This document shows positions 24,898-63,797 of a stretch of DNA of 64,000 nucleotides, one piece after another. The notes below the pieces were generated by a model. It worked only from the letters and a program-made list of their open reading frames with translations, had not been told where the DNA came from and did no database searches. The first letter of the stretch is position 1. Every line of letters starts with the position of its first letter. A program made the translations under genes and the position numbers. The stretch is from the IMG/VR virus record IMGVR_UViG_3300045988_179062; one strand, 5' to 3'. The stretch is from a virus.

Positions 24898-24920
24898 TAT
24901 ATCAAAGGAGACCACCGACA

Positions 24921-26893: not shown

Positions 26894-26937
26894 GCTTGCC
26901 CGTACCTCATCTCACACAACAGAAAGGAGGAAATCAC

Positions 26938-42052: not shown

Positions 42053-42192
42053 AAGGGATTGATAAACAAGCGCAAATATGCTATAATATATGGAGCCGGC
42101 ATGAGAAGTGCGGAGTCTTACTCCTTTCTTCTCCGCCATACCGCCGGATATTGCGCAAACGTTCCCGACACTACCACAGGCGCAATAGAAAA

Positions 42193-44046: not shown

Positions 44047-44102
44047 AGCCGACCGATATCATGCTCTTATGCTTCATTCTAACACAAATCTGCTCATAAA
44101 TC

Positions 44103-44132
44103 AATAGAAAACGCCCACCAAAATCGGTGGGC
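44103..44132 (-). terminator. Rho-independent terminator (minus strand)
   Basis: The stem is CGCCCACC / GGTGGGCG, followed on the minus strand by TTTTCTATT. Confidence 0.6.
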
Positions 44133-44161: not shown

Positions 44162-44476
44162 CTACGTCGGAATAACAATCTGTCCGTCTGCATCTTCCTG
44201 ACGAAAGCGCTTGTTCAACACATCAGAAGCGGAGAACTTGAAAATCACGTAGTCCTCCACGTTCGAACGCCCCTCAAACTGTACGGGGTGTCCCTTGTGC
44301 CTCTGCAGATAGAACGAACCGAAACCTGTCAGCGACAGTGTCCGTCCGCTCGCAACAACATCATGAATACCATTCACAATCGCATTGTAAGCATCCGTAA
44401 TATCCTCAAGGGACATGTCGTTATTGCGAGCAACGTCTGCGAGAAACTGGTTCTTGCTTATCTTGTTCTTCGTCAC
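44162..44476 (-). CDS. second, divergent HU/IHF-like DNA-binding protein
   Basis: 'LSLTGFGSFYLQRHKGHPVQFEGRSNVEDYVIFKFSAS' shows the HU beta-arm architecture. Confidence 0.65.
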   Translation of the reverse strand: MTKNKISKNQFLADVARNNDMSLEDITDAYNAIVNGIHDVVASGRTLSLTGFGSFYLQRHKGHPVQFEGRSNVEDYVIFKFSASDVLNKRFRQEDADGQIVIPT

Positions 44477-44703
44477 GTCACATCCTCTTTTCTATACAAT
44501 CGCATGTTCAACATTTTCACGGGATAATGCAAACCGCGCCAGCCGTATCCCGAAACGGCCCGCGCACAGTCGAGTTCGATTACCACCTTGCCAATAGTAT
44601 ACCTCAAAAACGCCCATAAATCAAGCAAAACAAAAGAAAAAAGAGCCGAAACGAAACGCACGTTCGTTCGGCTCTTCATCGTTGCTTATAACAAAGCTAT
44701 AGC

Positions 44704-45867: not shown

Positions 45868-47841
45868 TTAATCATACTGCGGACCGCCATCGTATCCGTC
45901 ATTACCCAAATCACCGAACTTGGCTTCTGCCTGACGTGCACGCTGAGCGGCCTTCTCTGCACGAGACGACTGCGCCGTACGCCCTGCCTGCTGCTGATAG
46001 CAACCCTTGGCGTACGACGTATCCACATCAGACAAATCCAGACAGCCAATCTGCTTATCGGCCCACGAACGGGCCTCATACAGACCATCAACGTTCTCAG
46101 GCACAGACTTGCCATCGACCTCGTACCAAATCTTGGCGCCTTCGTCCTCCGAATAACGAAGCATCTCCATCGCCTCGTCCTTGGACGCGCCCATGGCCAT
46201 CATGTTCGTCACACTGGATGCATACGTACGCATCACGCCGAACGCCGTGTTCGCCATGTCGTTGTAACGCCGCTCGTTCTCCGGCGAGGATGCGATGAAC
46301 TCCTTGACCGCCTTGCGGTTCTCCGGGTTCGTCATATCCATGTCGATACCCGCATCCACACAAGCCGACGCCGTCGCATACCAGCTGCTCAAATTAGCGG
46401 CATGCTTGCCGAACGCCTCGGACGACGGGTCGACACCGGCGGTGCGCTCCGCGAACGCCACGGCCAGAGACGAAATGTCAGCCGCATGCTGACCATCCAC
46501 CGAATCAAACGGCGTTGCCGTATCGCTGTACGAATCCGCGTACAGGAGCACGGATGCCTGCTTTGCGATGGCACCGTTCAGACCCATCGTAGCGGCGCGA
46601 CGCTCACGGGCCGAAACGCCCTCGGCGCCCGACGTGTTCTTCCAGTCAGCCATCGCCATATCGCGATACGCAGACATGTCGGCGCACGCCTTGTCGAACG
46701 CCATCTGGTCGTCCGGATTCTTCGACGCGCAGGTTGCCGTCTTATCGCCCGTCACACGACGCACCACATTGCTGATATCCTCACGTGCCGTATGAAGCTC
46801 ATCCGGGTTCGTCAGGTCGTAGGCGTTATCGTGCTCATCCATGACCTGCATGACGTTCTTGGCATACTCCATGTCCGTCATCGGCTCACGCACGGTAAAC
46901 GTCGCCTCGGAATCGACAGGAACCGTCGCCCCGTTCGCATCGCATGTCGCATACTCGCCACGCCACACGCGCATGGTCTCCATATGCGGAATGTTGTTCT
47001 CATCATAGACGGGAACACGCTCTTCCGTCGGCTCACCCTGCACCCACGTGCCGTAACCCATCTCACGGAACATATCCTTATAGGACGGGTCACGCTCCAC
47101 GGCCTTGCCGATGATGATGCGCTGGGAACGGGCCATGTCTTCACGACTCACGCCGTCCGCCTGCATCAGGGAATCAAGGGTCGAACGCGCCTCGTTGTAA
47201 CGGTCCATGACCTCCGCCGGGTCATGCTTGCCATCACGCATCTGCGCATAGGCTTCCTTCGCCATGCGAATGTCGGCTACCGCAGCGGTCTCCGGCGTAA
47301 ACGGCATACAACCCTGATTCGCGGCGGCGAGATACTTATCTCGCTTCTCCATCAACGTCTTGGTCAAGAAATTACGACCCAAGAACTTCTTATCGGGATG
47401 GTCCGCCATGAAATTCAACGCAGCGCCAATGCCCTGTGCCTTCGTATTGGTGACCATGTCACGAAACGCGGGATTCAACGCGGCCATGCCGGCATACATG
47501 CCAACTGCGGAAAGCACCTTTCCTATGGAAAGACCGCCGCGAAGCTGCTGTACGCAGGCGTAAAGCATACGACGCTGCATAATCTCGCCCATCATGCGCT
47601 GATGGTTCGTACGCTCACCCTTGTCCTGAATGTCAATCCATGCCTGACCCTTGTTCGTGAACGACACCATGTCGAACTGGATGTCATCCACATCCGACAT
47701 CAGCTTCTTCATCTGCTCGTCGCTGCGCTCGTCATTCAGATACAGACTGTCCTGACGACGACGCTCACGATTGGCTCGGGTCGCACGCTCCTTGTCAAGG
47801 CGCTTCTCCAGCTTCTTACGCTGCTTGCTTGCCATATTCAT
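45868..47841 (-). CDS. hypothetical 657-aa protein (operon with the RNAP-like gene)
   Basis: RBS GAAAGGAG is present. The composition is coding-like and no motif is recognised. Confidence 0.55.
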   Translation of the reverse strand: MNMASKQRKKLEKRLDKERATRANRERRRQDSLYLNDERSDEQMKKLMSDVDDIQFDMVSFTNKGQAWIDIQDKGERTNHQRMMGEIMQRRMLYACVQQLRGGLSIGKVLSAVGMYAGMAALNPAFRDMVTNTKAQGIGAALNFMADHPDKKFLGRNFLTKTLMEKRDKYLAAANQGCMPFTPETAAVADIRMAKEAYAQMRDGKHDPAEVMDRYNEARSTLDSLMQADGVSREDMARSQRIIIGKAVERDPSYKDMFREMGYGTWVQGEPTEERVPVYDENNIPHMETMRVWRGEYATCDANGATVPVDSEATFTVREPMTDMEYAKNVMQVMDEHDNAYDLTNPDELHTAREDISNVVRRVTGDKTATCASKNPDDQMAFDKACADMSAYRDMAMADWKNTSGAEGVSARERRAATMGLNGAIAKQASVLLYADSYSDTATPFDSVDGQHAADISSLAVAFAERTAGVDPSSEAFGKHAANLSSWYATASACVDAGIDMDMTNPENRKAVKEFIASSPENERRYNDMANTAFGVMRTYASSVTNMMAMGASKDEAMEMLRYSEDEGAKIWYEVDGKSVPENVDGLYEARSWADKQIGCLDLSDVDTSYAKGCYQQQAGRTAQSSRAEKAAQRARQAEAKFGDLGNDGYDGGPQYD

Positions 47842-47852
47842 TCACTCCTTTC

Positions 47853-49055
47853 TTAATCATTGTCCCCGTAATCGCCAACCGGCTTCTGCACGGACTGCGC
47901 GCCCGCCTGCTTAGCGACATCGCCAAACTTCTGCTGCGCCTGCTTGACGCGACCGGACAAGTCCTTGGTCGCCGTCTTCGCCTGAGAAGCCTGCTTCTGC
48001 ACCACATAAGGGTTCGGAGAAGCAATGCCACGGCTGAAGTCGATGCCCGACTTCGCCGTACCGACACGCTCAACCTGCTGCTTGGCATAGCCCTGCAACT
48101 TCTGCTGGTAGAACTTATCGTAACCAGCGCCAAGCTCGTTGTACGTCGCTCGACTCACGCGCAGGTCCTTCGGACGGCACTGGCCGACGGTTTCGGCAGG
48201 AAGGCCCTCGAAATCGCGATTATCGTACGCATACACCGTCTCGTAGAACTGACGCATATCGTCCGTGTAGGTGCGGCCCACGTTCTCGCCGAACTCATCG
48301 GCTTCCGCATGCAAATCCTCAGCGGACTTGCCGAACTTGTGGTCACGCGCCTCGTACCATGGAATATCCGGCTCATCGCCCTGAATCCCGTCTGCCTCGC
48401 GCTTGCGGTCGATGTCGTCCGCCTCGGCGTGCATCATGTCTTCCTGCATGGCGCCCTCATAGGCTTCCTGCTCGATGGCATCGCGGACTGCGATAATCTT
48501 CTCGTTCAGCATCTTGCCGTCTTCCGGCGTCCATGCCTGACCGTGGTCCATGCGGAAGTCCAGCATCTTGTTGAACGGCACGTCCTCGATACGGTCCGGG
48601 AACGTCGTCGGCGCCAGCTCGCTTGCGAGGGAACGGTCGCCGCGCGTATAAGGCTCCCCTTGATAATAGGCCGCCTCGCGGGCACGCTCATCGGCCCACA
48701 CGCGCATATCACTGCCCTCGCTCGGCACGAAACCGTAGGACTTCGCGAAACGGGTCAGGCTCTCACCCCAGCGCTCGGCGGACACGCTCGGATACTCCTC
48801 GTTCAGCGTATGGATTTCATCCATCGCGTCGGCGATTTCCGTCCAATCCTCGGCCGTCAACGGATGCTCATGAGCCTCAGGGATTACGTGGGACACCACG
48901 TAATCGACGTGCATGCCCAAATCGTCCTCTTCGGTGGGAAATCCGTCATTCTGCAGCCGGCTCGCCTCTTCCATCGCCTCGTCGTACTCCTCGGGCGTGA
49001 TGCCAAAGCGATTGAACATATCCATATCAGCGCCATCATGCTCATACGCTGCCAT
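47853..49055 (-). CDS. hypothetical highly acidic 400-aa protein
   Basis: RBS AAAGGAG is present. The protein is very Asp/Glu-rich. Confidence 0.55.
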   Translation of the reverse strand: MAAYEHDGADMDMFNRFGITPEEYDEAMEEASRLQNDGFPTEEDDLGMHVDYVVSHVIPEAHEHPLTAEDWTEIADAMDEIHTLNEEYPSVSAERWGESLTRFAKSYGFVPSEGSDMRVWADERAREAAYYQGEPYTRGDRSLASELAPTTFPDRIEDVPFNKMLDFRMDHGQAWTPEDGKMLNEKIIAVRDAIEQEAYEGAMQEDMMHAEADDIDRKREADGIQGDEPDIPWYEARDHKFGKSAEDLHAEADEFGENVGRTYTDDMRQFYETVYAYDNRDFEGLPAETVGQCRPKDLRVSRATYNELGAGYDKFYQQKLQGYAKQQVERVGTAKSGIDFSRGIASPNPYVVQKQASQAKTATKDLSGRVKQAQQKFGDVAKQAGAQSVQKPVGDYGDND

Positions 49056-49115
49056 ATCTCATCTACTCCTTTCATAAAGGGCAGCGGACGGAAAGCCCGC
49101 CACCCTGCATATCAG

Positions 49116-52100
49116 TTAGTCTTCGCCAAGGCCGCCATGACCGTTGTCCGACGGACTCGCCACGTTGTTGTTCGGCAAGCGACGAGGACCGACCGACACC
49201 GTACGCTTCGGACCGACCTTACGGTCATGACCGGACTCCACGGTATCCGTCTTCGTGAACGCGCGCATCGTCTTCGACGCATCCGCGCCCTCGACGCCAG
49301 CCTCGCGCTCTTCGAGCACATGCTCATTGTACTTCACCGAACGCGGTGCGAACTGGCTGTTGCACTCGCCACGGAAGAGGTTCTCTCCGTCACGGCACAT
49401 GCCGACCAGCATCTCGAAATTGCCGCCATACGCCAGCTTATCGAGCGGAGCCGCCATATCGACGTCTTCGGACTCGATATTGACGATATGCCCCGTCTTA
49501 TCGGACAAGGCGTCTGCGACCTGCTCGACGTAATCGGCGTTAAACGCCACGTTCAAGCCATCGCCTGCGGAATACAGGGTCTTGAAGCTCTTGACCCACG
49601 CGTCACGCTCGGCGGGGATAATCTCGCCGTTCTCATCCTTGGCGGCACGCCACTGACCGTTATCGTCCTTGGCGACATCGGCACCGCGCCACAGGTCGCG
49701 TGCGGGACCCATCAGAAGCTCATACTTGCGACGGGCCTCCTCGGCATTGTGCTTCGCCTGCAGAAGCGACTGAGTAACCGGCATGGTCAGCTCCAGCACT
49801 GCCTTCTGGCAGGTGTTGCGCATCGCGGACACGCCACGCTGCGAGTAGGAGCCGGCGATGCCCGTACCGAAGGACTTGACGGCACACGCCGTCATGACCT
49901 CCTGATTGTCCGCACGAGTCGCACCGGTATGTTCGCCCATCGTAGCGCCGGTGAAATCCATGTTCTGCGCGTTCGGCGCATCCATGCCACCCCAGCGCAT
50001 GTAATTCAACAGGTTCGCCGGCTTACCCTTTGCCCCCGTCTTGATACATGCCTCGTTGATGGACTCCAGATGCGACTCAGGGCTGTCGTAGCGGATAGCC
50101 GCACGACCGCACTGACCGGAGAAGACCTCATGGTACAGACCGGACAGAGCCTCGACCGTCTCCTTACGGGCCTCGGTAATCTCCGCCTTCGTCATGTTGC
50201 CGGCCAGATAGTCCGCCTCATTGGAGTTCACCGTCTTAGCGATGCTGTCGAAACGCTCCTTGAAGTGCGAATCCGGGCTGTTGGCAAACGCCACCTTGAC
50301 ATCCAGCGACTGCTGCATGAACAGCTCGAACGGCTTCTCAAGGTCGTCGCTCTTGACACCGTAGTCCAAAAGGTTCGCCTGCACGGAGAAGTTCTCCATC
50401 GCCTCGCGACGCGCCGCCGGAGTCATCAGATTAACCACGGCCACGGTATCGCCGTCGAAGTCACCATCGAAGGACTTATCCATGACAGGGTTGATGGCGA
50501 CACCCGTCAGGCTGTCATCAATCTTGGCGCGCATATAACGCATGCCACCGTCACGCAGGATAGGGTCACGCCAAATCAAAACGTAATCGTCATCCTTGAC
50601 GCCGATGGAATCCGCCATCGCGCGACCGACCGCCACTTGGTCGATATCCAGACGCGGGTCGGCGTTCCAGATGGCCGTCGCAGAGTTCGGCATCTTGTGC
50701 GCCATGACCTCGTCACGGAACACATTGTGCTTGCCCGTAAAGGCACGCTGCACCACATCGCCCGTGATACGGTCGAAGCTCGCCTGAGCCGTCGTCTGGC
50801 AGCGCTCCATCTGCGCACGCAGCGCCTCCTGCGTCTTGTCGTCCAGACCCGGCTTGCGGAGCTGTTCCTGACAAGCGCGGTACATGTTGGCCTGATTGAA
50901 GACCTCGATGTACTGATGCGTGTAATCGTGCACGCTGGACGTACCGTCAACGAACGTCTGACCGGAACGCAAGTACGAACTCATGACCGGCAGACCCCAC
51001 GTGACGTTATCGGTCTGGCGCTGACCGGCTTCCTGACGACGATGCACCGTGGTCGGACGGACATACACGCCATCCTTGCGGGTATAGCCCTTACGCTCCC
51101 ACTCCTGCTTCGTGTACACCACGTCGGTCTTGCCGTCGTTCATCGGGGCGATGGCCTCGCCCGTCGGATACTTCAGCTCGAACGGAAGCTCCATGACGCC
51201 ACCGGACTTGGCAATCAGCTCAGCGAAGTCACTGTCCATCGACTTGACGTCAAGCGACGGACGACCGTCCTTCGTCACACCCGGTGTACGATACTTCAGC
51301 TCCGGCATCTCGATGACGCGACGGACCTCGCCCTCGTGAGGCTGATAGCCCACACGGAACTGACCCGTCTCGCTGATGTCCAGACCGCACGTGATAAGCT
51401 GCTCACGGATGTTCGACAGCACCGAGCTGTTATTACCGAAGCACTCACGCATGATAGCCGGCGAACCCTTGGCGTTCGCAGCCCATGCCGCCTGTGCGGA
51501 GAACTTACGTCCGCCCTCCTCATCATAGACATGGGTCTTCGCATCTGCCGACTTGTCGGTCACGATGATGCGCATGGAACCCATGGCGCCCTTGATGACC
51601 GTGCCATCCGGCGCCTTCAAATCCTGCGGATTCTCCATCAACTCGCGCGCCGTACCGCCGTTAAAGCGGGACACGGCCGGGAACGGAGCCATGACCATAT
51701 CCAAATCAGGGTTGGCACGCAGCCACTTCACCTGCTCCAGAATGCCCTTGTCCTTGGCTTCCTCGTCCGACATGTTCGGGTCCATCACATAGACGACGCC
51801 CTTGTTGCCGTACGGGTCGGTGACCTTGTCACCGTTCACCATCGGACGAAGATGACCGTCACGGGTACGAATCTTGTACTCCTCGGCCAGACGCTTCGTG
51901 ATGACCACTTGGTCATCCATCGTCCAACCGCCAAAGGTCATCTGCGCCACATTGACCGGACGGGTCACGGCGCTTGCCTGCATCAGGTTCGACACCGTCA
52001 TGTTCTGACGGTCAAACGGGTTGAACTCCATATAACGGGCCAGCGGATGGTTCATAATGGCGCAACGGGCGTTCTTGTCCGACGACGGAGTGATACGTCC

Positions 52101-54758
52101 GTCCGCCTCCACATGAGCGCCGGAAACCAGATAACGCAGCGTACCCTGATTCGTGCTGGTCGCCGTCGTTGCCACCGGGTCGAAATACCCGTCGGACTCC
52201 TCGGTCAGCACAGCCATGTTGCGACCGCCCGTCAACACGAAAGCATCGCCCGTGTTGTCGTTCGCCATGTCGCGACCATAGGAACGAGCCGTGTAATCGG
52301 CATGGATGGTCGACCCGTCACGGATGGCGTTCGGATAACGAACGCGCTGCCCCTCGGTCTCGATGATGGCCCACAGCACATCATCCTCCATGCCCTGCTC
52401 GCGGAACTGCTCAACGAAATCGTAATCGTGACGCTCGTCATAGAGATGACGATACGTGTCGTTCACGCTGGTCGGAGCGCCATAGACACCGTCGCGGTTC
52501 ATCGACAGGAAATCCTGACGAATCTGGTAACGAATGCTCTCGCGCATCGCCTGCTCGTAACCGCGCAGGCGCGTACGCTCCTCGACCGTCGACGGATGAC
52601 CCGGCGTCTGCGCCAGCACATGCGCCTCGTAGCCCGGAACGAATGCATAGTTCTCGATGCCCGTGAAATTGGTGTACACCACGCCATGCTCATCCGGCTC
52701 GAAGAACTGACCAATCTCGCCCTCGACCTGCTGCAGAGGGTTCTTGCCGGTCGTATACGCCGACGTCGCAATCTGACCCTTGTAATGCACGATGCCGTTG
52801 CCGTCGATACGGATGTCCTCATCCTTGAAATCGACGCCGTTGGCTTCCAGCGAATCGTGAATCTCCTGATACATGCTGCGCATGAACGGAGACTTCACGT
52901 CCTTCATCGCACGGGCAGACGCATAATCGAACTTGACCAGCTTACTCTTCATCGCCTGCGTATAGAAATCGTCGCCCTTCAGCTCGTCGGGCTTGATATC
53001 CAGCATACGCATCGCCTTGACGAGGTCATCGTTGTTACGGTAAATGCCGTAAGCCGACGTCTGGAACGCCGACACGCCAACCGGGTTGAAACGCTGACCA
53101 TTCTCGTCCGGCGTGTAATCGCCGATACGGTATTCCACCGACGACGAAGCATGGGCGCGAACCATATCCTCAGGCGACATATCCGACGGATAGACCAAAT
53201 CGGACAGCTCGTTACGATACAACGTGCTGGCCACCGCATCATCGGTCTCCAGCTCGCCGACCTCGGAGATACGCTCCTCGAACTCCTCGGCCTGACGACC
53301 CGGACGCATCAGGGTCGACTTGTTGCCAAGCAGGACATCGTAATAGCCCTGCTGAATCACGGCGATGTCGGGATTGCCCGACAGCTCCGACGCGAAATCC
53401 TCGTCATGACCATGCTCGGCAACATGCTGGATGATACGCTCCGCGTCCAGCTCGGTAGCGTAATTCTCACGCGCCGTACGAACCGCCTCGCGCAGATACT
53501 CATCCGCATCCGCCTGACTGACCATGGTGGTCGTCGCAGCGGAACGCCCGCTCACATCCACGTTGATGTAGAGCTGGTTGTTATAACGGTCGCCTTCCTT
53601 GCCCGTATGGGCGTTACGGTGGGGCTTGCCGATAGTGACATGGGAACCACGGGAGTTATGGTACGTGCCGTAGACCGTCTTGCGCTGGTTGCGCTCGATA
53701 CGGGTATACGTGCCGAACTTGCCGACCGGTTCGTCGGTACCCGGCTTCGTCATCGGCTCGCCGAGACCGTACTTCACCATCATCAGCGTCTCATCCACCG
53801 TAGGCTCCGGCGCATCACTGATGCTGGTGGACATGGTCGTCTTCAACAGCATGAACATGCCGTTGTCATACACACGACCAATCATGCGGGCATTGTCCGG
53901 CGTATCCATCACACGGATGCTCACGCGCGTGCCGTCCACCGTCGCCTGCAGCTGTCCCGGACGCATGTCGGGACGAATGCTGTAATCGCGTCCCTCTCGG
54001 TCCAGCTCCTCCATGATGGCAACGGCCTTATCCATGGAGCGGCGGTGAGTCTGCATCTGCTCCGGCGTCATCTTCGACAAGTCAAAGCCGCGCTCAACCC
54101 ACGACGAGCACTTCGCATAGTCCTCAGCGGACATAAAGCGCTTCAGACGGGTCATCCCCAACAGGTCCGCCTTGCACGTCAGCGAGCGACCACGGTCGCT
54201 GCCACGCCACACGGCGTCCTTGCCGCGCATGGACAGATTGCCCGCATACGGTGCCGCAAACCCGCCACGCGTCGTCGCGAGCGCCTCGGCGGAAGGCACC
54301 TTGCTATCCATAGCGACACCGCCAAGACGAGTGCCGTTGTCCATAACGGCATCGTTCATGGCAAACCGAGGGTCATACGGCGAAATCGGCATATAATGCC
54401 CCTCGCTCGTCACCTCGGACTCCTTACCAGTCTCCAGACCGACCAGCGACTTATAGTCGGCGAACTGGTGATTGAACAAACGACGACCTGCATCTCCGTC
54501 CGCATACGGGGCATGCCCCATGCGCTCGGAAAGAACCGCATTCGTCGCTGCGATGAAGTCTGGAATCCTCAGAGTCTCCATCGACTTTCCTTCGGACGCC
54601 AATCGCTGACCCAAACGAGTGCGGAACATACGACCCTCGGACGCCATGATGTAATCAGGGCGACTCTCAGTGACCTGCGACTCGTTATAGTCGCGAATCA
54701 CGTCGTAGAACGCATACTCGTAAAGGTAACGAGTCTTGTCCTTAGCAGTCAGTTTCAT
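49116..54758 (-). CDS. giant single-chain multisubunit-type RNA polymerase-like protein (fused beta-like and beta-prime-like double-psi beta-barrels)
   Basis: The beta-DPBB signature 'MVNGDKVTDPYGNKGVV...PDLDMVMAPFPAVSRFNGG' is encoded at 51795-51842. Compare RpoB 'GDKMAGRHGNKGV...DIVLNPLGVPSRMNIGQ'. The beta-prime-DPBB signature 'WRDPILRDGGMRYM...INPVMDKSFDGDFDGDTVAVVNLMTPAARREA' includes DFDGD at ~50447-50475. Compare RpoC 'NRAPTLHRLGIQAF...[23 protein letters not shown]'. The start is taken at ATG 54758 (AAGGA 4 nt upstream). The track ORF extends to a GTG at 54923 with an Arg/Ser-rich, non-protein-like leader. Confidence 0.75.
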   Translation of the reverse strand: MKLTAKDKTRYLYEYAFYDVIRDYNESQVTESRPDYIMASEGRMFRTRLGQRLASEGKSMETLRIPDFIAATNAVLSERMGHAPYADGDAGRRLFNHQFADYKSLVGLETGKESEVTSEGHYMPISPYDPRFAMNDAVMDNGTRLGGVAMDSKVPSAEALATTRGGFAAPYAGNLSMRGKDAVWRGSDRGRSLTCKADLLGMTRLKRFMSAEDYAKCSSWVERGFDLSKMTPEQMQTHRRSMDKAVAIMEELDREGRDYSIRPDMRPGQLQATVDGTRVSIRVMDTPDNARMIGRVYDNGMFMLLKTTMSTSISDAPEPTVDETLMMVKYGLGEPMTKPGTDEPVGKFGTYTRIERNQRKTVYGTYHNSRGSHVTIGKPHRNAHTGKEGDRYNNQLYINVDVSGRSAATTTMVSQADADEYLREAVRTARENYATELDAERIIQHVAEHGHDEDFASELSGNPDIAVIQQGYYDVLLGNKSTLMRPGRQAEEFEERISEVGELETDDAVASTLYRNELSDLVYPSDMSPEDMVRAHASSSVEYRIGDYTPDENGQRFNPVGVSAFQTSAYGIYRNNDDLVKAMRMLDIKPDELKGDDFYTQAMKSKLVKFDYASARAMKDVKSPFMRSMYQEIHDSLEANGVDFKDEDIRIDGNGIVHYKGQIATSAYTTGKNPLQQVEGEIGQFFEPDEHGVVYTNFTGIENYAFVPGYEAHVLAQTPGHPSTVEERTRLRGYEQAMRESIRYQIRQDFLSMNRDGVYGAPTSVNDTYRHLYDERHDYDFVEQFREQGMEDDVLWAIIETEGQRVRYPNAIRDGSTIHADYTARSYGRDMANDNTGDAFVLTGGRNMAVLTEESDGYFDPVATTATSTNQGTLRYLVSGAHVEADGRITPSSDKNARCAIMNHPLARYMEFNPFDRQNMTVSNLMQASAVTRPVNVAQMTFGGWTMDDQVVITKRLAEEYKIRTRDGHLRPMVNGDKVTDPYGNKGVVYVMDPNMSDEEAKDKGILEQVKWLRANPDLDMVMAPFPAVSRFNGGTARELMENPQDLKAPDGTVIKGAMGSMRIIVTDKSADAKTHVYDEEGGRKFSAQAAWAANAKGSPAIMRECFGNNSSVLSNIREQLITCGLDISETGQFRVGYQPHEGEVRRVIEMPELKYRTPGVTKDGRPSLDVKSMDSDFAELIAKSGGVMELPFELKYPTGEAIAPMNDGKTDVVYTKQEWERKGYTRKDGVYVRPTTVHRRQEAGQRQTDNVTWGLPVMSSYLRSGQTFVDGTSSVHDYTHQYIEVFNQANMYRACQEQLRKPGLDDKTQEALRAQMERCQTTAQASFDRITGDVVQRAFTGKHNVFRDEVMAHKMPNSATAIWNADPRLDIDQVAVGRAMADSIGVKDDDYVLIWRDPILRDGGMRYMRAKIDDSLTGVAINPVMDKSFDGDFDGDTVAVVNLMTPAARREAMENFSVQANLLDYGVKSDDLEKPFELFMQQSLDVKVAFANSPDSHFKERFDSIAKTVNSNEADYLAGNMTKAEITEARKETVEALSGLYHEVFSGQCGRAAIRYDSPESHLESINEACIKTGAKGKPANLLNYMRWGGMDAPNAQNMDFTGATMGEHTGATRADNQEVMTACAVKSFGTGIAGSYSQRGVSAMRNTCQKAVLELTMPVTQSLLQAKHNAEEARRKYELLMGPARDLWRGADVAKDDNGQWRAAKDENGEIIPAERDAWVKSFKTLYSAGDGLNVAFNADYVEQVADALSDKTGHIVNIESEDVDMAAPLDKLAYGGNFEMLVGMCRDGENLFRGECNSQFAPRSVKYNEHVLEEREAGVEGADASKTMRAFTKTDTVESGHDRKVGPKRTVSVGPRRLPNNNVASPSDNGHGGLGED

Positions 54759-55069
54759 CGTATCCTTCACATCCTTTCCGATGTCGTGAACGTAAACACA
54801 AAAGAAGCCGGAACCCAACGACATCTCGTCGGAATCCCGGCTTCTGCAACGCATTGGCACAGACCTTCGCGACGACTCGCTCTTATTGCCCGACGGCAAC
54901 CTTCCGTGGTCACATTCATGCACCTATAATCTTAGAAAAGTATACCATATACGAACAGAAATTTCAAGACTTCAGAGCAACATAACCGCAGGTAAAATAA
55001 GAAGAACACCTTCCCTGCTGCGTACAGAATAAATACGACAAGGCGCGACGCCTTGCGATGGGAATCCTG

Positions 55070-55217
55070 AGAATCGTAGCTCAGTGGTAGAGCTTCGGGC
55101 GTTCCGTCCATGAGAGGGTTCGAGTCCCTTTGTTCTTGCGGGAAGAGTGGGTAGCGGGCGACAGGCCGAAAGGCGACGCACCGGGTACAGCGCGGGTTCG
55201 AATCCCGTCGGTTCTCT
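55070..55217 (+). tRNA. tRNA-like locus: one D-arm and two T-arm/3'-acceptor segments (tRNA with an inserted or duplicated 3' portion, or a tRNA plus pseudo-tRNA)
   Basis: A canonical D-arm, GCTCAGTGGTAGAGC, lies at 55079-55093 and is preceded by TA and the acceptor 5' arm AGAATCG at 55070-55076. T-arms lie at 55114-55130 (GAGGG-TTCGAGT-CCCTT) and 55192-55208 (GCGGG-TTCGAAT-CCCGT). The 3' strand CGGTTCT at 55209-55215 pairs with AGAATCG (one G.U). No clean anticodon arm could be folded by eye. Confidence 0.4.
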
Positions 55218-56469: not shown

Positions 56470-58308
56470 TTACGCCCCTTTCTTCTCAACGGTGCCGGCA
56501 TCTTCAACCATATCCCCGACAACCGTGCGACGCACATGCACCGCATTATCCGTGCGCAACAGTCCTCGCGCACGGCTCGGCACATCCGGGGAACACAGCT
56601 GGTCGAGATTCGACCCGCGAAAACCCGATTTCATCAAACTCTTGACGTCATACTCCAGAATCAGCGGCTCGGGATAGTCCATACGTCCCGACGTGCTGAC
56701 CTGATTATCCGAACACGTCCAGTCGGGATACTCTTCGAGCACCTGACGGAAGTCCTTCAGGAAACCCTTCTTGCTCTGAATCTTTCCCGACGGCATATAC
56801 GTGCGATACCAGCCCTCGTAGAACCGATACAGCCAGTCCCATGGAATCAAGTCCCACGAGAAGCGAGGCAACGTATCCTCGGTGAACTGGCGCACCGGGT
56901 CGTTGAACGACTTATAGTCTTCCAACAGGTCAACGCACGCTGTCGGCTCGTCAAGCTCGTAATAATCAGTCTCGGCAAGCACGTGATACAACACGTATTC
57001 AAGCACGTCCTGACGATACAGATAATCGTCCTTGATGTACTTGCGCTCGCGACCCTGAAATCGCTTGTCGAACGGAATCACCAGCAGGCGACGGTACATC
57101 GACTCCGACTTGTCCTTGAGCTTGGGCATCTCGTTGACACACTGCACCATGAACCCGCGAAACAGAAGCGACCTCGGGTCCTTGAACTTGCGGTTTATCT
57201 GGAACGGGTCATGGGTGATGACGCACTTGAGCGCGGCCGCATCGTCCACGAACGTACCGGTGTCGTTCTCATCGGTGATGATGGCCGACACACGGGTCAG
57301 AGGCTCCAGCATGAACTGCTCGGAGAAGTTCTTCAACGGGATGGACTCCCACGCGCCCGGACCGCACAGATTGCGCATCAACACGCACAGCGTTCCCTTG
57401 CCGTTGTTACCCAGCGTCGAATAGAACCATGCGCTCTTGTTCCAGCTCACGTTCGGACGGATGACCGCCCCGATAATCTCCCACAACAGCCTGACGATTT
57501 CCGGGTCGTCGGAAAGCTCGTTCATCCACGAGACGACGTCCCAGTCCGTGTTGTCATCGCTGTTATGTATCACGGGATTTTTCGCGCCGTCGACGAAGTT
57601 GACGTGGCTCTTGCTGGTAAAGACAAAATCCGGGTCGAACGCCATCAGAATCTTGTTGCCGTAATCGTAGATGCCGTTGTTCACGGCGACCAAATCGCGG
57701 TCGCGACAACGCTCCACACGGGGGCAAATCGCACGAAGCACGGCAACCGTCTCGGCGACGTCCTTGATGCTCATGGCTTTGTTGTAGCGCCGAATCAGAC
57801 GCTCGATACCGTCGAAGCTGGTATCGTAGCAACCCATGTTGTCGCCCTCGGTCTGATAGATGCCGATGTCATAGTTGCCCTCGTCGCGAACGCTGGCCCA
57901 GCAGACGCACACGGCATGGTGCAACTTGTACAGAAGCACCGCAATCTGCATCGGATGCAGACCGCTGATGCGCTTATAGCGCTCCACGCCCTGCTTCTGG
58001 TCAGGATAGGCATCCCTCTGCTTCGCGCCGGCAGGTGCGTTCGGGTCGCACTTGCCCAAGTTGTACGCGTCAATGCAACGGTTCGTCAAGGTGAGAAGCT
58101 CGTATTTGAGTGTATCGCGAGCAGGAGGGTTCTCCGTGTCGATGCCCTGCAGATAGAACAGCGTCGCATACTCCAAAAGGTCATCATAAGCAATGACCTG
58201 CTCAGAACAGTATGATACAATGTCAGCAGCGCAATCGTCAGGTAAGCGCATATCTTCCTCCGTCGCTCCGATGTCAACTGCATCGGGGCGATTTTCTTGT
58301 AAACTCAC
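56470..58308 (-). CDS. phage/plasmid primase-helicase, P4/D5 family (C-terminal SF3 NTPase domain)
   Basis: The D5_N/Primase_C-type region has Walker A 'STLGNNGKGTL' and Walker B 'AIITDENDTG'. 'FKDPRSLLFRGFMVQCVNEMP' is present. The N-terminal half is a primase-type domain. Confidence 0.7.
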   Translation of the reverse strand: MSLQENRPDAVDIGATEEDMRLPDDCAADIVSYCSEQVIAYDDLLEYATLFYLQGIDTENPPARDTLKYELLTLTNRCIDAYNLGKCDPNAPAGAKQRDAYPDQKQGVERYKRISGLHPMQIAVLLYKLHHAVCVCWASVRDEGNYDIGIYQTEGDNMGCYDTSFDGIERLIRRYNKAMSIKDVAETVAVLRAICPRVERCRDRDLVAVNNGIYDYGNKILMAFDPDFVFTSKSHVNFVDGAKNPVIHNSDDNTDWDVVSWMNELSDDPEIVRLLWEIIGAVIRPNVSWNKSAWFYSTLGNNGKGTLCVLMRNLCGPGAWESIPLKNFSEQFMLEPLTRVSAIITDENDTGTFVDDAAALKCVITHDPFQINRKFKDPRSLLFRGFMVQCVNEMPKLKDKSESMYRRLLVIPFDKRFQGRERKYIKDDYLYRQDVLEYVLYHVLAETDYYELDEPTACVDLLEDYKSFNDPVRQFTEDTLPRFSWDLIPWDWLYRFYEGWYRTYMPSGKIQSKKGFLKDFRQVLEEYPDWTCSDNQVSTSGRMDYPEPLILEYDVKSLMKSGFRGSNLDQLCSPDVPSRARGLLRTDNAVHVRRTVVGDMVEDAGTVEKKGA

Positions 58309-58310
58309 GC

Positions 58311-58628
58311 TTATCCCTCCTCTCTATAAATATCGTGCTCCAGCATGAAGCGTTCCAGACTCATGCGGTGCACCTTCTTGTGCCGACTGTTCCCTCCGGG
58401 TGCGATAAAAGGACAGTCGGGCTGATTCATCAACTCATTCAATCGGTTGATACCGATGCCGAACAGCTCGGACGCTTCCCGCTTCGTCAGAAACGGCTTG
58501 TACGACAGCGCTTGGATGTACGACGCATAATCTTCCATGGACATCTCAACCCCGCCAATCACATGGCGAGTCGTTGAGACGGCCGGCGTCTCACTCTGAC
58601 TCATCACAGGCTTGCTCATGATAATCAC
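58311..58628 (-). CDS. helix-turn-helix DNA-binding protein (excisionase/AlpA-like)
   Basis: The HTH is 'LTKREASELFGIGINRLNELM'. It sits immediately upstream of the primase and next to the iteron array. Confidence 0.5.
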   Translation of the reverse strand: MIIMSKPVMSQSETPAVSTTRHVIGGVEMSMEDYASYIQALSYKPFLTKREASELFGIGINRLNELMNQPDCPFIAPGGNSRHKKVHRMSLERFMLEHDIYREEG

Positions 58629-58753
58629 CCCTCCCTTTCTTCTTGCCTATATCACAGATATACACAGTATACCACAGTAACACATAAAAAGTCAATACCT
58701 CGCGCATCTATGCCTCGACAGCAAGGCATTCATCCCCACCCGGCGACCGTCTG

Positions 58754-59195
58754 ACTCACTTCGTTCTTACTCACTTACTCACTTGGGAAAAACAAGTGAG
58801 ACCCGCCGAAAACGCCGATTATCACGGGGAAGTACGCCAAAAAGAAGGCGCTTGTCTCACTTTCTTACTCACTTAATCTCACTAAAAAATTGGCAAGTGA
58901 GACGGTGTTTTCCCCCATTTTTCAGGGCTTTTAGGGTCGTTACTCACTTTACTCACATTTTTCCAAACCCTTATATATAGAAAGAAGTACAAAATTACTC
59001 GCCATAAATAGATTGAAAAATAGTGAGTAAAGTGAGTAAGAAAATAGCAAATTGCCCATGTTTACAGGGAAAACGGACAATTTCTTTAGCGTACTAAAGT
59101 GAGTAAGGATTTCGAAAAACGCCCATAAATGAGGCTTTCGCTTACTCACTAAAATTTGCTCAAGTGAGTAACAAGTGAGTAAGAACTGAGTAAGC
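58754..59195. repeat. iteron array: at least 14 copies of the 9-mer AGTGAGTAA/TTACTCACT in both orientations, with an AT-rich tract; putative replication origin
   Basis: Copies lie at ~58767, 58775, 58865, 58939, 58948, 59022, 59031, 59098, 59144, 59164, 59175 and 59185. Related GTCTCAC/GTGAGAC inverted repeats lie at 58854 and 58897. The AT-rich segment 59260-59300 lies between the array and the co-directional HTH-primase operon. Confidence 0.6.
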
Positions 59196-59491
59196 AACAC
59201 GGCATCACTAAAAATTTCCGCACTCGCACTCATTTTCCGCCGTACTCTATTGCATATCGAAAACAATCGTTATATAATAAAAGATTATTTTCAAAAACCT
59301 GCGTGATGACGCGACTAATACCGCGGGCACGCTCCGACCGGTCGTCTCACTTTGCTCACTTCCAACTGAGAGGCGCGACAGAGGTGCGACAAACACCACC
59401 CTCCCCTTTCTCGTACGTCATCCACTCAACCGACGGGGCAATCCCAAATGCAACCGAAATCGCTTTCGTGCGACACGCCCGAATAAAAATG

Positions 59492-59523: not shown

Positions 59524-59604
59524 GACATTACATGGGTTCTTTATCGTCTGACCTATTAAAACGTCTTAAAACGGCTCTCAGAGCCTCATACGGTGTTTCC
59601 CTAT

Positions 59605-59690: not shown

Positions 59691-62600
59691 TTAGTCTCTC
59701 AGCAGACGAGCCATCTCGGTCTCGAAACGTCCGTTCGCAAACTTCCAACTCGATTGTGAAATCAGGAAGTCGAGGAACGCATCCGTTACCGTAAACGAAC
59801 CCATGCGCTCCACATCGTGAGCGTTGATATCCTGCTCCGAGTAAACGTTCGATGTCGGGTCATGAATCGCCTCGTTGATGCTGTTCAGCTCTTCGCTCTT
59901 AACGCCCATGACAATGTACGGAACGCCCGTCGCCGAATACAGCGAGCCGTTGCGCATCTCGAAGTTGATGCGGTCCTGCTCGAAATCACCCTTCACCTCA
60001 AGGAACGCGTTCGTAATCGTCTGGTCCAGACTGTGATTGTAACGACCGTTGTTCTTGAAATCGGCCGGCGACAAAGCGCCATCGGCATAGCATGCCGTAT
60101 GCATCGCATCGTATTCGGCCGCCTTCTCGGCGTTCACACGGGCCTGCTCCTCGTTCGGAACGGCACGCGCGGCAAACGATTCCTGCATCGCCATGTAATC
60201 ATCGTCAATCGGCGGAGAGTACATGTCGTCATCATCCGAACCCTTCAGCGTCTCGTTCAGAGAGGTGTTGATGACCTCCATGATTTCATCGGCGTACAGG
60301 TCGGGGTCGAGCTGTTCAATCTGATGCTCCGTGTAATCATACGTCGACTGGTATGCCTCACGGGCCATGTCGACAGCCAACGCCTGCGCGATGCGCTTGT
60401 CGAGCATCTTGTCGAAATCAGGCACGTTCTTGCGCACATCGAAGTCCTTCGCCGAGGACAGCGTCGGGATGGTCTGGAACGTGTACTTGTGACCCGGCTG
60501 CGTGATGGTCTCAGAGAACAGGCGCCAAGACATCGGCAGAATGGTCTCGTTGCGGTTCCAAATCGGCGAGTCACCGGCACGGAAGATGATGGAGTTACGC
60601 TCCGAAATAAACGCCATGTCGTTGTACTTGATAACCGGCTCTTCGACCGTCGTCATCGTGTACGACACCTTGCCCTCGTTACGCATCCAGACCTTCTCGG
60701 TATCACGCGTGATGGTCTTGGAGTTCGTGTAGGCACGATGCTGCGTACCGCTCATCTTCTGCAACGTATCCAACATGCTATCGTCAGTCGACTTCAAAAA
60801 GACGATGTTGGACGTGTTGCCCTGCACGATTTTATCGACGCTATCGCCGTAAACATCGCGCAACTGCTGAAGGGTCTGCAGAATCAGCGTGAACTGCTGC
60901 TCCTGACCGAGTCCGATGGAAAGCATCGTCTCAAAGCCGGAGATACCGTGACCCTCGGACTGCAGGTTACCCAACTCATCGAGCATGAAACGCGTCTTGT
61001 AGAGTGGCTTCTGATTGTCCTTCGTCATGTAGGACTGGTCGAAATTGAGGTCAACCAGCTGCTTGATGAGAATCAGAATCAGCTTCGCATACGACATCAG
61101 GTGCGGAGGCGTGACAAGGAACACCATCTTCTGCTTCTCGCTGTAACGCTGCATGTACTGCGTGATGGCACGGGCCTTCACCGTCTCCTTATGCGGCGTC
61201 GTGGCGATGTCCTTCATCTTCTCCGTCTTGTACGTCACATACCCGCGCTTGAACTCCGTAGCGCCCGTCTTCGGATTCTTCACGGGACGAAGCTCGGTCA
61301 GGATGCCATCATGGACAATCTTGTTGCCCAGAATCGGGTCCTTAACGTACGTACGGCCGTCCAGCGACGTCTGATACGTCTTCACGAACTTGAAGTAGAA
61401 CGTGCGCATCAGCTGGAACGTCTGCGGGTTGCGAATCTCACAGCGCAGATACGCCGTGTCCTTCGGGAAGATTCCCTTGAAATAGAATCGCGACCAACCA
61501 GCCGTGTTGACCAAGTCCTCATGATAGAAGTCCTTGCCCAGCGATTCCTTGAACAACGGGTCGGAGAACGCCTGCCAGATGCACTGCATACCCTTGAGGT
61601 GGTACAGCGCGATGAAATCGGCGCTCATACGGAAACCAAGACGACGCGGGAACGACAGACCAGCCAAGTCCACGTTCTGCATCGGCGTACCGCTGGTCAG
61701 CGTACGGATGGTCGGGTCCGTGAAGAACGACATGGCCGTGATGGCGATACCGTAGACGGAAGCCATCATCTTCTCGGCGCCACCCATGGAACGCAGGGCG
61801 TCATCGGCGTTGCCCAAAAGCGTACGCATCTGGTTACGCGGCAGGAGCTTCGTCGCGTTGAAGTACAGCGTCAGCAGGTCAATCTCGGGCTTCTCTTCCC
61901 ACAGATACTTGGACTGCTTCTCCACACGGGACAGCTCAGCCTCATACTGCTCGTCATTCATCTCAGCGATACGGGCTGCTTCCTCTGTCGCCGGGGTACG
62001 GCCCTCCGCCATGGCGGCATTGGCTTCCTTGGCTTCCTTCGTGAACGCAACAGCCGGGTTCGGGAGCTTCTTGGACGTCAACGTGACGAACAGCTCATAG
62101 CAGTTGTACAGCGTGACGTGACCCCACAGATTGTCGAGCTTGGTCTCCAGCGTCTTCTCGTCCATGTGCGTGCGCTGGGCAATCAGACGCAGTTCCTTCT
62201 CCTCTTCGAGGTAATAGTCGATAAGACCGTACGCAGCACGCTTGAACGCGTTGTTAGCGGCGTTCGGCCACACCGGGTCGTCACCGCCATCGACCGGGAA
62301 GAACACCTCGGCGATGTTGTTGACATACATGGCAACCTTGGTGAAGTCACCCTCGCGGGCTGCCGTCGCGGCCATCATCAACGGGTTGTAAATGTCCGTA
62401 TTCATCGAGTTAATCAGGTTGAACTGCACGACCTGAAAACCGCGATACGTACCGGGCACATAGAACTTCTTCAACAGCTCGCCCTTCGGGTCGTTGATGA
62501 CCATGTTGTTATTGTTCTTCTCACGGGTCCACATGTCAATGGTCGGCTCGATGATGGTCTGACCCTTACCTGCACGCGTGATAGCCAAAACCATCGTGTT

Positions 62601-63797
62601 GACCGGGTCGATGTCCACCAGATACGCACCGCCGGGACGCTGCGTCTCGTAATACGGAATCTCCCAGTCACCGTTAATCATGTCAGCGACCGTATCGTAA
62701 CCCTTCAGCTTGTCACGGTTGGCATTCTTCGGGTTGTACGGAATCTTGGTCGCATCGTAATACTTACGCAGCGACTTATCCTTCGGCAGACCGGACGCGT
62801 CGAACAGTGCCTCCATGAACTCCGTGTTGAACATCGGCACCGTCTTCGTCATCGGCTTGTCGTTATCGTCCAGAAGGATTTCACCCTTCAAATATTCGAC
62901 GTCGCCATCCTCATCGAGGATGTCCTTGTCGGCTCGCACCGAGATGGGAACCTTCTTGATGCCCTTGTTCTGCAGAGCCACATGCGAAATCATACTGGAC
63001 ACCTGCACCGAACAATGGGCACCTGCATCCGGGAACCAGTCGAACTTGCGCATAATCTCTTCCGGCAGGGCGATATGCTGGTCGTTCTGGTATTGGTTGA
63101 TATCCGTCGTGTCGTTCATCAGGTTCTGCGCGGCGAGATTGCGCATCATCAGCGGATACATGATGGCAAACACCAGAAGCGCACCAATCAGAGCACCTAC
63201 GAAGTCAGGCCAGTTGTACAGCGCCGGCGCAATCCAATACGTGAACGACTTCTGCTCTTTAGCAAGCTCCTCTGCCGCCTTCTGCTCAGCAATCTCCCTC
63301 TGTCCCTCTTCAGTGGACATCTTCTGCTCGTACTCGGCCTTGGAGACCGTGTACCACTCAGGCTCGGGGACATCCTCCATGTTGTCGTAGACCGGGCCAA
63401 ATGGCTTGCCGTTCGCATCCTTGGCCTGATACTTCGTACGCATGCCCGTCATCGGGTCGATATCGTCGATATCTTCGATGTAGTTGTACGGGTCATCAGG
63501 GTCGTACGTACCGACTTTAGAGTCACTGCTCCCGTCAGAGGTGACGATGGCGCTCGCGCCGTCGCCGCTCATTGCTGAGATACCGTTCATGCCCCAACGG
63601 ATGCCACCGACGACCATGTACATCAGAATACCGGCCAGAATCGCCACAATGACAGTAGCGATGATACGTGACAGCGAAGACTGCTTCTCTTCGATTTTGG
63701 AACGCTCAAGCTGTTGGTCGTCATACACGTCACGATACTTGGTCGTATCCTGAGGCTGGCGGTCCTTGATGATGTCCCAATTCGTCTTCTTCGCCAT
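59691..63797 (-). CDS. type IV secretion coupling protein (VirD4/TraG/TraD family) with a ~700-aa C-terminal extension
   Basis: Two N-terminal TM helices are predicted. The VirD4-type P-loop is 'VLAITRAGKGQTII' (compare 'APTRSGKGVG'), followed by 'DPKGELLKKF' (compare 'DIKGEN'). The Walker B is 'TRFMLDELGNL'. Also present are 'EQQFTLILQTLQQLRDVYGD' and 'SNIVFLKSTDDSMLDTLQKMSGT'. Confidence 0.7.
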   Translation of the reverse strand: MAKKTNWDIIKDRQPQDTTKYRDVYDDQQLERSKIEEKQSSLSRIIATVIVAILAGILMYMVVGGIRWGMNGISAMSGDGASAIVTSDGSSDSKVGTYDPDDPYNYIEDIDDIDPMTGMRTKYQAKDANGKPFGPVYDNMEDVPEPEWYTVSKAEYEQKMSTEEGQREIAEQKAAEELAKEQKSFTYWIAPALYNWPDFVGALIGALLVFAIMYPLMMRNLAAQNLMNDTTDINQYQNDQHIALPEEIMRKFDWFPDAGAHCSVQVSSMISHVALQNKGIKKVPISVRADKDILDEDGDVEYLKGEILLDDNDKPMTKTVPMFNTEFMEALFDASGLPKDKSLRKYYDATKIPYNPKNANRDKLKGYDTVADMINGDWEIPYYETQRPGGAYLVDIDPVNTMVLAITRAGKGQTIIEPTIDMWTREKNNNNMVINDPKGELLKKFYVPGTYRGFQVVQFNLINSMNTDIYNPLMMAATAAREGDFTKVAMYVNNIAEVFFPVDGGDDPVWPNAANNAFKRAAYGLIDYYLEEEKELRLIAQRTHMDEKTLETKLDNLWGHVTLYNCYELFVTLTSKKLPNPAVAFTKEAKEANAAMAEGRTPATEEAARIAEMNDEQYEAELSRVEKQSKYLWEEKPEIDLLTLYFNATKLLPRNQMRTLLGNADDALRSMGGAEKMMASVYGIAITAMSFFTDPTIRTLTSGTPMQNVDLAGLSFPRRLGFRMSADFIALYHLKGMQCIWQAFSDPLFKESLGKDFYHEDLVNTAGWSRFYFKGIFPKDTAYLRCEIRNPQTFQLMRTFYFKFVKTYQTSLDGRTYVKDPILGNKIVHDGILTELRPVKNPKTGATEFKRGYVTYKTEKMKDIATTPHKETVKARAITQYMQRYSEKQKMVFLVTPPHLMSYAKLILILIKQLVDLNFDQSYMTKDNQKPLYKTRFMLDELGNLQSEGHGISGFETMLSIGLGQEQQFTLILQTLQQLRDVYGDSVDKIVQGNTSNIVFLKSTDDSMLDTLQKMSGTQHRAYTNSKTITRDTEKVWMRNEGKVSYTMTTVEEPVIKYNDMAFISERNSIIFRAGDSPIWNRNETILPMSWRLFSETITQPGHKYTFQTIPTLSSAKDFDVRKNVPDFDKMLDKRIAQALAVDMAREAYQSTYDYTEHQIEQLDPDLYADEIMEVINTSLNETLKGSDDDDMYSPPIDDDYMAMQESFAARAVPNEEQARVNAEKAAEYDAMHTACYADGALSPADFKNNGRYNHSLDQTITNAFLEVKGDFEQDRINFEMRNGSLYSATGVPYIVMGVKSEELNSINEAIHDPTSNVYSEQDINAHDVERMGSFTVTDAFLDFLISQSSWKFANGRFETEMARLLRD

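Follow-up and report, generated by a model that had tools for sequence, protein, structure and literature searches.

A single-chain two-barrel RNA polymerase homologue encoded in the DNA-transfer module of a conjugative plasmid-like element

What might a homologue of the cellular RNA polymerases (RNAPs) do on a mobile element, beside the genes for DNA transfer? This question is raised by a stretch of 64,000 nucleotides from IMG/VR virus record IMGVR_UViG_3300045988_179062 (the window), which is a conjugative plasmid-like element and carries on its minus strand, at 49116..54923, an open reading frame (ORF) of 1,935 codons that runs from GTG 54923 without an internal stop. Work on single-chain relatives of the cellular RNAPs has been limited to a few phages (YonO, crAss gp66 and P23-45) and to the RNA interference polymerases. 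In a first-pass annotation, made from the sequence alone, it had been proposed that this ORF encodes both catalytic double-psi beta-barrels of the multisubunit RNAPs in one polypeptide, in the order beta then beta-prime. Both parts of the proposal hold, the two barrels being supported by Pfam, by hhalign and by invariant residues and their order by the positions of the motifs, and we regard the whole ORF as that of a single-chain two-barrel RNA polymerase homologue.

The four strings on which the proposal was based are all present, GDKVTDPYGNKGVV at residues 1031-1044, DMVMAPFPAVSRFNGG at 1075-1090, RDPILRDGGMRYM at 1452-1464 and DKSFDGDFDGDTVAVVNLMTPAARREA at 1482-1508, which is well outside what chance would produce. 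The beta-type double-psi beta-barrel (residues ~990-1095; 51639..51956, minus) is marked by GGWTMDD (D1004), GDK...GNKG (K1033 and K1041) and P..SRFNGG. The beta-prime-type segment (residues 1310-1545; 50289..50996, minus) comprises a lid-like LPVMSSYLRSGQ, a clamp-helix region, a switch-2-like GKHNVFR..M..K..NSATA and a second barrel with R1452-D-P1454, and the Mg2+-binding loop D1488-F-D1490-G-D1492 lies at 50448..50462 (minus). An RNAP profile search, which had been suggested as a check, gives a significant beta-prime match: Pfam RNA_pol_Rpb1_2 (PF00623) is found at residues 1442-1510 with 31.9 bits against a gathering cut-off of 25.3 (E 1.9e-7). For RNA_pol_Rpb2_6 (PF00562) the window protein itself stays below the cut-off, which is exceeded by a Streptomyces homologue (33.2 against 23.4 bits), and this domain is precomputed for many other homologues. 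When a profile of the family was compared with cellular beta-prime by hhalign, the two aligned over 233 columns (residues 1310-1545) with a probability of 96.7% and an E-value of 3.6e-10. This alignment pairs LPVMSSYLRSGQ with VLPVIPPNLRP in the lid region of cellular beta-prime, places GKHNVFR..M..K..NSATA on switch 2, and pairs WRDPILR with NRAPTLHR and DGDFDGD with NADFDGD. Against the PDB, the family profile matched bacterial beta-prime chains at E ~1e-12, with residues 241-492 of Escherichia coli beta-prime covered at E 5e-12. A profile of the beta barrel matched a cellular fused beta-beta-prime (probability 93.8%, E 1.7e-7) and, in the two pieces 670-696 and 823-853, Thermus beta (E 8e-8). 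Since the Thermus match skips residues 697-822, the flap (SBHM) insert of ~126 residues is absent in the window protein, in which only 28 residues separate D1004 from D1032 and no flap/SBHM stands between the barrel halves.

In an alignment of 31 family sequences, which are 32-79% identical to the window protein, D1004, D1032-K1033, N1040-K1041-G-V, P1080, S1085-R1086, N1088, R1452-D-P1454 and D1488-x-D1490-G-D1492 are invariant. These include the basic residues of the beta barrel (K1033 and K1041) to which the first-pass annotation had drawn attention, and all eight residues (D1004, K1033, K1041, R1452, P1454, D1488, D1490 and D1492) that are listed as universal to two-barrel polymerases by Ruprich-Robert & Thuriaux (PMC2919709). 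In a wider set of 181 family proteins, GDK..GNKG is found in 177 and GDFDGD in 168, so the DFDGD loop is conserved in homologues as had been anticipated, and catalytic residues are retained even in Staphylococcus and Lactococcus plasmid homologues of ~25% identity. As judged from these sequences, the active site is intact and under purifying selection.

The predicted structure is in agreement with this. A single AlphaFold2 model of residues 700-1880, built with the family alignment, is confident (pLDDT 86.7, pTM 0.81) and matches both beta-like and beta-prime-like subunits in structural alignments. The top Foldseek matches in the PDB are bacterial beta-prime chains (E 4e-11). Structure scores were higher for most largest subunits (Pol V 15.7, Pol IV 15.1, rpo147 14.7, Sulfolobus A' 14.6) than for the single-chain enzymes P23-45 gp96 (11.9), QDE-1 (9.7), RDR2 (8.7) and crAss gp66 (8.7); the exception is Mycobacterium tuberculosis beta-prime, which with 11.1 over 498 aligned residues comes slightly under gp96. 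According to the model, ~900 of the 1,181 modelled residues correspond to the core of the two large RNAP subunits. The N-terminal region (residues 56-700; 52824..54758, minus) is shared across the family and its fold is predicted with confidence; these ~700 residues have no structural neighbour in the PDB and are therefore regarded as a family-specific module.

Following the second barrel, the model contains a 32-residue helix (residues 1670-1701) and then a helix-loop-helix (1706-1738), the loop of which (QAKH) holds an invariant TQ..L..KH. Compared by eye with cellular beta-prime, TGAKG (residues 1629-1633) resembles the region F sequence SGARG, TACAVKSFGTGIAGSYSQRGV resembles the bridge helix DTALKTAQAGYLTRRLV and MPVTQSLLQAKH resembles the trigger loop EPGTQLTMRTFH; TQ..L..KHD is kept even in the Staphylococcus and Lactococcus plasmid homologues. 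Based on predicted secondary structure, motif comparison and conservation, the stretch at 49710..50037 (minus) is a candidate for these three elements, and we suggest that region F, the bridge helix and the trigger loop with its histidine have probably been retained. The protein ends in a low-complexity tail (residues ~1880-1935; 49119..49286, minus) with a basic stretch and then the acidic tip GGLGED. This two-part tail recurs family-wide as an Arg/Lys-rich part (e.g. R..G..RRS..AV.V..PRR.P) and an acidic, often aromatic tip, GGLGED, DDYHL, EDFQL and DGEFSL being among those seen. It resembles peptide docking tails such as the C terminus of SSB; that it is a docking or export signal is speculative.

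While the ORF opens at GTG 54923, the true start is probably ATG 54758 (M56), which gives a protein of 1,880 residues. Four points speak for this. The sigma-70-type promoter has its end at 54939, and an AGGA Shine-Dalgarno-like site stands ahead of 54758; M56 is also where the family alignment begins, and a RefSeq protein from the same 90% cluster has 1,880 residues. GC contents of 0.60/0.42/0.75 at the three codon positions match those of the other window genes and identify the minus-strand frame as the coding frame. A plus-strand ORF of 2,366 residues (47829..54929), antisense to the genes for the RNAP and for a 400-residue protein, has the mirror-image codon-position GC and was rejected as a shadow. 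Long shadow ORFs likewise lie opposite most window genes; they result from high GC at third codon positions and avoidance of TTA, CTA and TCA codons, and are not genes.

The promoter of the RNAP unit (54939..54974, minus), with TTGAAA-17-TG-TATACT at 54967-54939, is of the host sigma-70/sigma-A type and is preceded by a terminator-like hairpin (55056-55038). It belongs to a shared motif of ~45 nucleotides, cTTGATwwATsAGC-N9-TATGGTATAMT, which combines a sigma-70-type -35 with an extended -10. Nine copies are on the minus strand (16565-16609, 31105-31149, 31194-31238, 36354-36398, 37890-37934, 40516-40560, 44071-44115, 44591-44635 and, for the RNAP unit, 54934-54978) and two on the plus strand (9088-9132 and 42048-42092). 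The -35 overlaps a palindrome, (C)TGATAAATCA(G), which is a candidate common operator, and this arrangement suggests that one repressor may control about eleven transcription units including the RNAP unit. The RNAP gene itself is transcribed by host RNAP via its operator-bearing sigma-70-type promoter. In the gap just upstream of this promoter, and antisense to the gene, lies a tRNA-like element of 147 nucleotides (55070-55216, plus), which scores 40.7 bits with the Rfam tRNA model against a gathering score of 29 and is not called as a tRNA by ARAGORN. It has canonical acceptor, D and T arms and, in the anticodon region, a 67-nucleotide insert with a second T-arm-like hairpin. It is missing from three related loci, and we consider it incidental rather than a component of the locus.

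How widespread is this protein, and in what kind of element? When 1.84 billion cluster representatives were searched exhaustively with phmmer, 555 proteins were found at E<=1e-3, of which 377 remain at E<=1e-30; among the 150 matches listed, nearly all have 1,800-2,900 residues, and the few shorter ones are fragment-like. A further, word-indexed search of proteins contributed nothing but cellular RNAPs. A pattern scan with the single protein had given no close relatives, and an alignment-based scan of one genome per species found 70 loci, overwhelmingly in Actinobacteria (Streptomyces, Arthrobacter, Pseudarthrobacter, Kribbella, Microbacterium, Nocardiopsis and Actinomyces) together with a few gut metagenome-assembled genomes; Corynebacterium is not among the 70. 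Full-length homologues are present on plasmids of Streptomyces, Gordonia and Rhodococcus, and partial, more distant ones on plasmids of Staphylococcus and Lactococcus, all of them annotated 'hypothetical'.

A metagenomic cluster of 233 sequences, found on contigs of up to 157 kb, shares 98% identity with the window protein. One cluster member, WP_418708797.1, is found in RefSeq on a 130-kb contig as 'hypothetical protein [Alistipes putredinis]'. A Bacteroidota host, which this label would imply, is unlikely, given AGGAGG-type Shine-Dalgarno sites at nearly every gene and TTGACA/TATAAT promoters, and the label may be due to contamination or mis-binning. The Shine-Dalgarno sites and the promoter type indicate a host of Gram-positive type, and the nearest relatives are in Coriobacteriaceae and Actinobacteria.

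An origin from a phage was also rejected. A tblastn search of 50,697 phage records gave no match at E<=1e-5, the neighbouring genes have no meaningful PHROG matches, and the RNAP itself hit only the P23-45 tape measure protein family and, weakly, a beta-subunit family among the PHROGs. Family members occur on 35 'viral' contigs of 67-230 kb in IMG/VR, and 28 of these 35 also carry an upstream type IV coupling protein (T4CP); such contigs look like conjugative plasmids or integrative and conjugative elements (ICEs) rather than phages. A defence system was rejected as well, PADLOC being empty for the RNAP and its two downstream partners.

The surroundings of the gene point to DNA transfer. The first-pass annotation had described the element as encoding a T4CP, which is confirmed by Pfam T4SS-DNA_transf and TraG-D_C matches in a 1,368-residue protein of the VirD4/TraG family (59691..63797, minus). 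A T4CP gene lies upstream of the RNAP gene on the same strand in 66 of the 70 loci, with a median gap of 215 bp. Downstream and on the same strand in 68 loci is a homologue of a 657-residue protein (45868..47841, minus), for which Pfam, PHROG and PADLOC are all empty and no known domain was found. An HU-like DNA-binding protein (44162..44476, minus; Pfam Bac_DNA_binding) follows downstream in 60 loci, and a ClpB-like ATPase is encoded upstream in 53. A 400-residue protein without known domain (47853..49055, minus) is encoded directly downstream of the RNAP, with no terminator-like site between the two genes, and is syntenic in close relatives. Related contigs that extend past the window edge carry genes for a MobL relaxase, two small proteins, a ClpB-like AAA+ ATPase with a LAGLIDADG intein, a 774-residue protein and the T4CP. 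The order of the conserved module is MobL relaxase, ClpB-like AAA+ ATPase, a protein of ~700-870 residues, VirD4-type T4CP, RNAP, a protein of ~610-730 residues and HU-like protein, and it is identical in Gordonia pGKT2 and also found in Streptomyces. On a Staphylococcus plasmid a T4CP gene is followed by two genes, the RNAP homologue and, farther on, a topoisomerase gene. Close relatives share a block of D5-like, RNAP, ~400-residue, ~670-residue, small, HU-like and RecD2-like genes, and SSB, RarA and topoisomerase are encoded near the RNAP in relatives.

A D5/DUF5906-type helicase, a probable replication protein (56470..58308, minus), lies between the T4CP and RNAP genes of the window and is missing there from the actinobacterial loci. 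Next to a 105-residue gene and the D5_N/DUF5906 helicase (56470-58628, minus) are iteron-like AAGTGAGTAAG repeats, six or more, direct and inverted (58747-59202), and together iterons and helicase are probably a plasmid replication origin and its initiator, inserted between the T4CP and RNAP genes.

Does the protein belong to one of the known kinds of two-barrel RNAP? From the cellular and viral multisubunit enzymes (beta/beta-prime; Rpb2/Rpb1; vaccinia rpo132/rpo147) it differs in being a single chain, in the absence of the flap/SBHM insert that in those enzymes contacts sigma region 4 or TFIIB, in its unique N terminus of 700 residues and in its location on a conjugative element. Whereas cellular matches have 5-11 Rpb domains, the window protein has PF00623 only and its homologues PF00623 and/or PF00562; of about a dozen existing Rpb1/Rpb2 Pfam domains these two alone are detectable in the family. 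Genes for alpha or omega were not recognized among the annotated neighbours.

YonO of the Bacillus subtilis prophage SPbeta is likewise a single-chain two-barrel RNAP of a mobile element; it is DNA-dependent, transcribes a dedicated gene set with no known host factors, and has a size of ~100 kDa, few residues matching multisubunit RNAPs and no trigger-loop homology (PMC5467207). At twice that size, the window protein is homologous to beta-prime at the profile level, over 233 columns, and carries a conserved P.TQ..L..KH in a helix-loop-helix that may correspond to a trigger loop, and the search of phage records revealed no sequence relation to enzymes of the YonO type. Two barrels in one chain are also found in gp66 of the crAss-like phage phi14:2 (PDB 6VR4), which with 2,166 residues is of similar size, and in QDE-1/RDR2. 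P23-45 gp96 (PDB 8H2M/8H2N) is an active single-chain RNAP that is delivered with the incoming DNA (PMC10770324); it is fused to the tape measure protein of a phage, has no similarity to the window protein outside the core, and is structurally farther from it than most multisubunit subunits. Both gp66 and gp96 are phage-encoded and packaged in the virion, whereas the window gene stands beside a relaxase, a T4CP and helicases. The window protein is thus not of the YonO type, the crAss type or the canonical multisubunit type, each of which fails on a defining feature that was tested.

A plasmid-borne Rpb2::Rpb1 fusion with the same subunit order, Orf6 of the yeast linear killer plasmid pGKL2, is described as multisubunit-derived in PMC2919709; it has 982 residues, belongs to a eukaryotic cytoplasmic linear plasmid with no conjugation link and, according to PMC7824862, keeps the SBHM insert that the window protein lacks. 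The closest fit is with the NCgl1702-like beta::beta-prime RNAPs, as they are described in these two papers: single chains of ~2,000 residues, with beta before beta-prime, mainly from actinobacterial mobile elements and without the SBHM insert. As judged from these descriptions, the window family may well be the NCgl1702-like lineage. In what could be read of the papers, neither a linkage to a T4CP/MobL module nor experiments are described for that lineage.

What, then, could such a protein do for the element? The reading that we favour, to which we give about an even chance, is that a catalytically competent single-chain two-barrel RNAP carries out sigma-independent RNA synthesis on transferred element DNA, making early transcripts and/or primers. 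Host RNAP would read the gene from its operator-bearing sigma-70-type promoter, and the product, a reduced beta::beta-prime fusion and most likely a DNA-dependent RNAP, would make RNA on element DNA without a host sigma factor. The template would most plausibly be newly transferred DNA, and the products would serve as early transcripts, as primers for synthesis of the second strand, or as both. The analysis establishes the fold, the catalytic residues, the family and the synteny; enzymatic activity, template, timing and any export to the recipient are inferred. In bacterial RNAP the beta flap binds sigma region 4. As the flap is absent here, and its loss is equated with loss of the sigma region 4 contact also in PMC7824862, initiation independent of host sigma factors is likely. 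That RNA would be made on transferred DNA is suggested by the position of the gene behind that of the T4CP, among genes of DNA-handling and establishment type, and by two phage enzymes that set a precedent, P23-45 gp96 and crAss gp66, both of which reach the inside of the cell together with the DNA.

Several points weigh against this reading. The literature searched contains no biochemical or genetic work on any member of the family. A profile of the C-terminal part gave only chance-level gyrase matches in the PDB and none against cellular beta-prime, and it is because sequence profiles give no support that region F, the bridge helix and the trigger loop are elements we infer. In the loop FDGDFDGD, an Asp takes the position of beta-prime N458, which helps to read the ribose, a change that leaves room for another sugar specificity. 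No promoter motif specific for the RNAP was found in the window, where the sole repeated intergenic family is the sigma-70-type promoter with its palindromic operator; the other visible transcription units in the window also have host-type promoters, so the enzyme is unlikely to be the general transcriptase of the element. Finally, the adjacency of the T4CP is circumstantial as support for export by a type IV secretion system (T4SS) or for action in the recipient.

An alternative is a dedicated transcriptase that works only in the donor cell, where it would read one or a few long operons of the element (e.g. transfer genes) from promoters of its own after induction, a logic for which YonO and the late operon of SPbeta are the precedent. 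An operator-bearing host promoter common to about ten units suggests a regulated cascade, and the lid, switch 2 and trigger-loop-like element would fit processive transcription of double-stranded DNA. The units in the window, however, already have strong host-type promoters with no second promoter-like repeat family beside them, and the tight linkage is with the T4CP and with DNA-handling proteins (HU-like; SSB, RarA and topoisomerase in relatives) and not with a structural operon. We therefore regard this explanation as a serious one that is nonetheless on the unlikely side.

By analogy with the phage virion RNAPs, the enzyme could be their counterpart in conjugation, exported together with the transferred strand and transcribing and/or priming the incoming single-stranded DNA ahead of sigma-dependent expression by the host. 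The adjacent T4CP might recognize the enzyme, perhaps via its basic-then-acidic C-terminal tail, and the ClpB-like AAA+ ATPase of the module might unfold it before transfer. We hold this more specific version of the favoured reading to be unlikely.

A more doubtful proposal is that the protein makes only short RNA primers on the transferred strand, as an analogue of conjugative primases that replaces the TOPRIM/AEP primases (Sog, TraC). The position beside the T4CP in the DNA-transfer module and the establishment-type neighbours (HU-like, SSB, RarA, topoisomerase) would suit such a role. Host RNAP primes the single-strand origins of Gram-positive plasmids and ICEs, and QDE-1-like two-barrel enzymes use single-stranded DNA. 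An enzyme of 210 kDa with a lid and a trigger-loop-like element exceeds what priming needs, though, and a D5-type helicase/primase-like gene is also present on the window element. No TOPRIM or AEP primase domain was found in the protein by Pfam, NCBIfam, PHROG and PDB searches, and its fold is that of a two-barrel enzyme.

Another template or product, with the protein acting as an RNA-dependent RNA polymerase (as QDE-1/RDR do) or as a DNA polymerase (as archaeal PolD does), seems to us very improbable. That the protein is a catalytically dead relic, which the transfer apparatus would use as a scaffold or to bind DNA, is hardly credible: it has no specific support other than that large conserved proteins of obscure role are common in Gram-positive conjugation modules, and unless catalysis is under selection, it is difficult to see why all eight catalytic residues should be invariant across sequences as far apart as 25-40% identity.

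Outside the module, several further observations were made on the element. The T4CP gene ends at a hairpin terminator (59554-59588) that is 89% identical to a hairpin at 38088-38122. A LAGLIDADG/homing-endonuclease (intein-like) insertion in the ClpB-like ATPase was seen in locus L075 (4589-7504), which is from the element of the window, and in Streptomyces locus L013 (6-2348), and a second, intein-free ClpB-like copy is encoded within the window (19959-21872, plus). For a plasmid, the cargo on the plus strand (in 1-37000 and at 41051-42052) is atypical. It includes a fragment of an SNF2-type helicase where the window ends, the anaerobic ribonucleotide reductase NrdD (5047-7299), a UvrD/GajB-like helicase (21950-24859), a MazF/PemK toxin domain (24666-25499), MgsA/RarA (26896-28167), a flotillin/SPFH protein (31323-32717) and AIM24 (35477-36319), together with a CdiA-CT RNase A-like domain (41051-42052) that matches weakly, under the Pfam cut-off.

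The enzyme class to which the protein belongs is already known; what is new or unreported is the linkage to a conjugation module, the closeness to the multisubunit RNAPs and the novel N-terminal module. In the literature searched, a two-barrel RNAP is tied to conjugative plasmids only by a passing mention in PMC7824862. The family comprises hundreds of clusters, is built into the DNA-transfer module in conjugative plasmids and ICEs of Gram-positive type, and keeps more of the cellular enzyme than the single-chain RNAPs that have been studied. It retains the lid and switch 2, and probably also a bridge helix and a trigger loop, and has lost the flap. If the enzyme is active, conjugative elements would, like phages, bring their own transcription or priming machinery, which would bear on how incoming DNA is established in a new host. 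An active enzyme would also be useful in studies of mechanism and evolution, as a compact stand-in (~210 kDa, one gene) for the multisubunit RNAP core, and it would be a candidate for a co-transferred conjugation protein in Actinobacteria, where T4SS-type conjugation has barely been studied.

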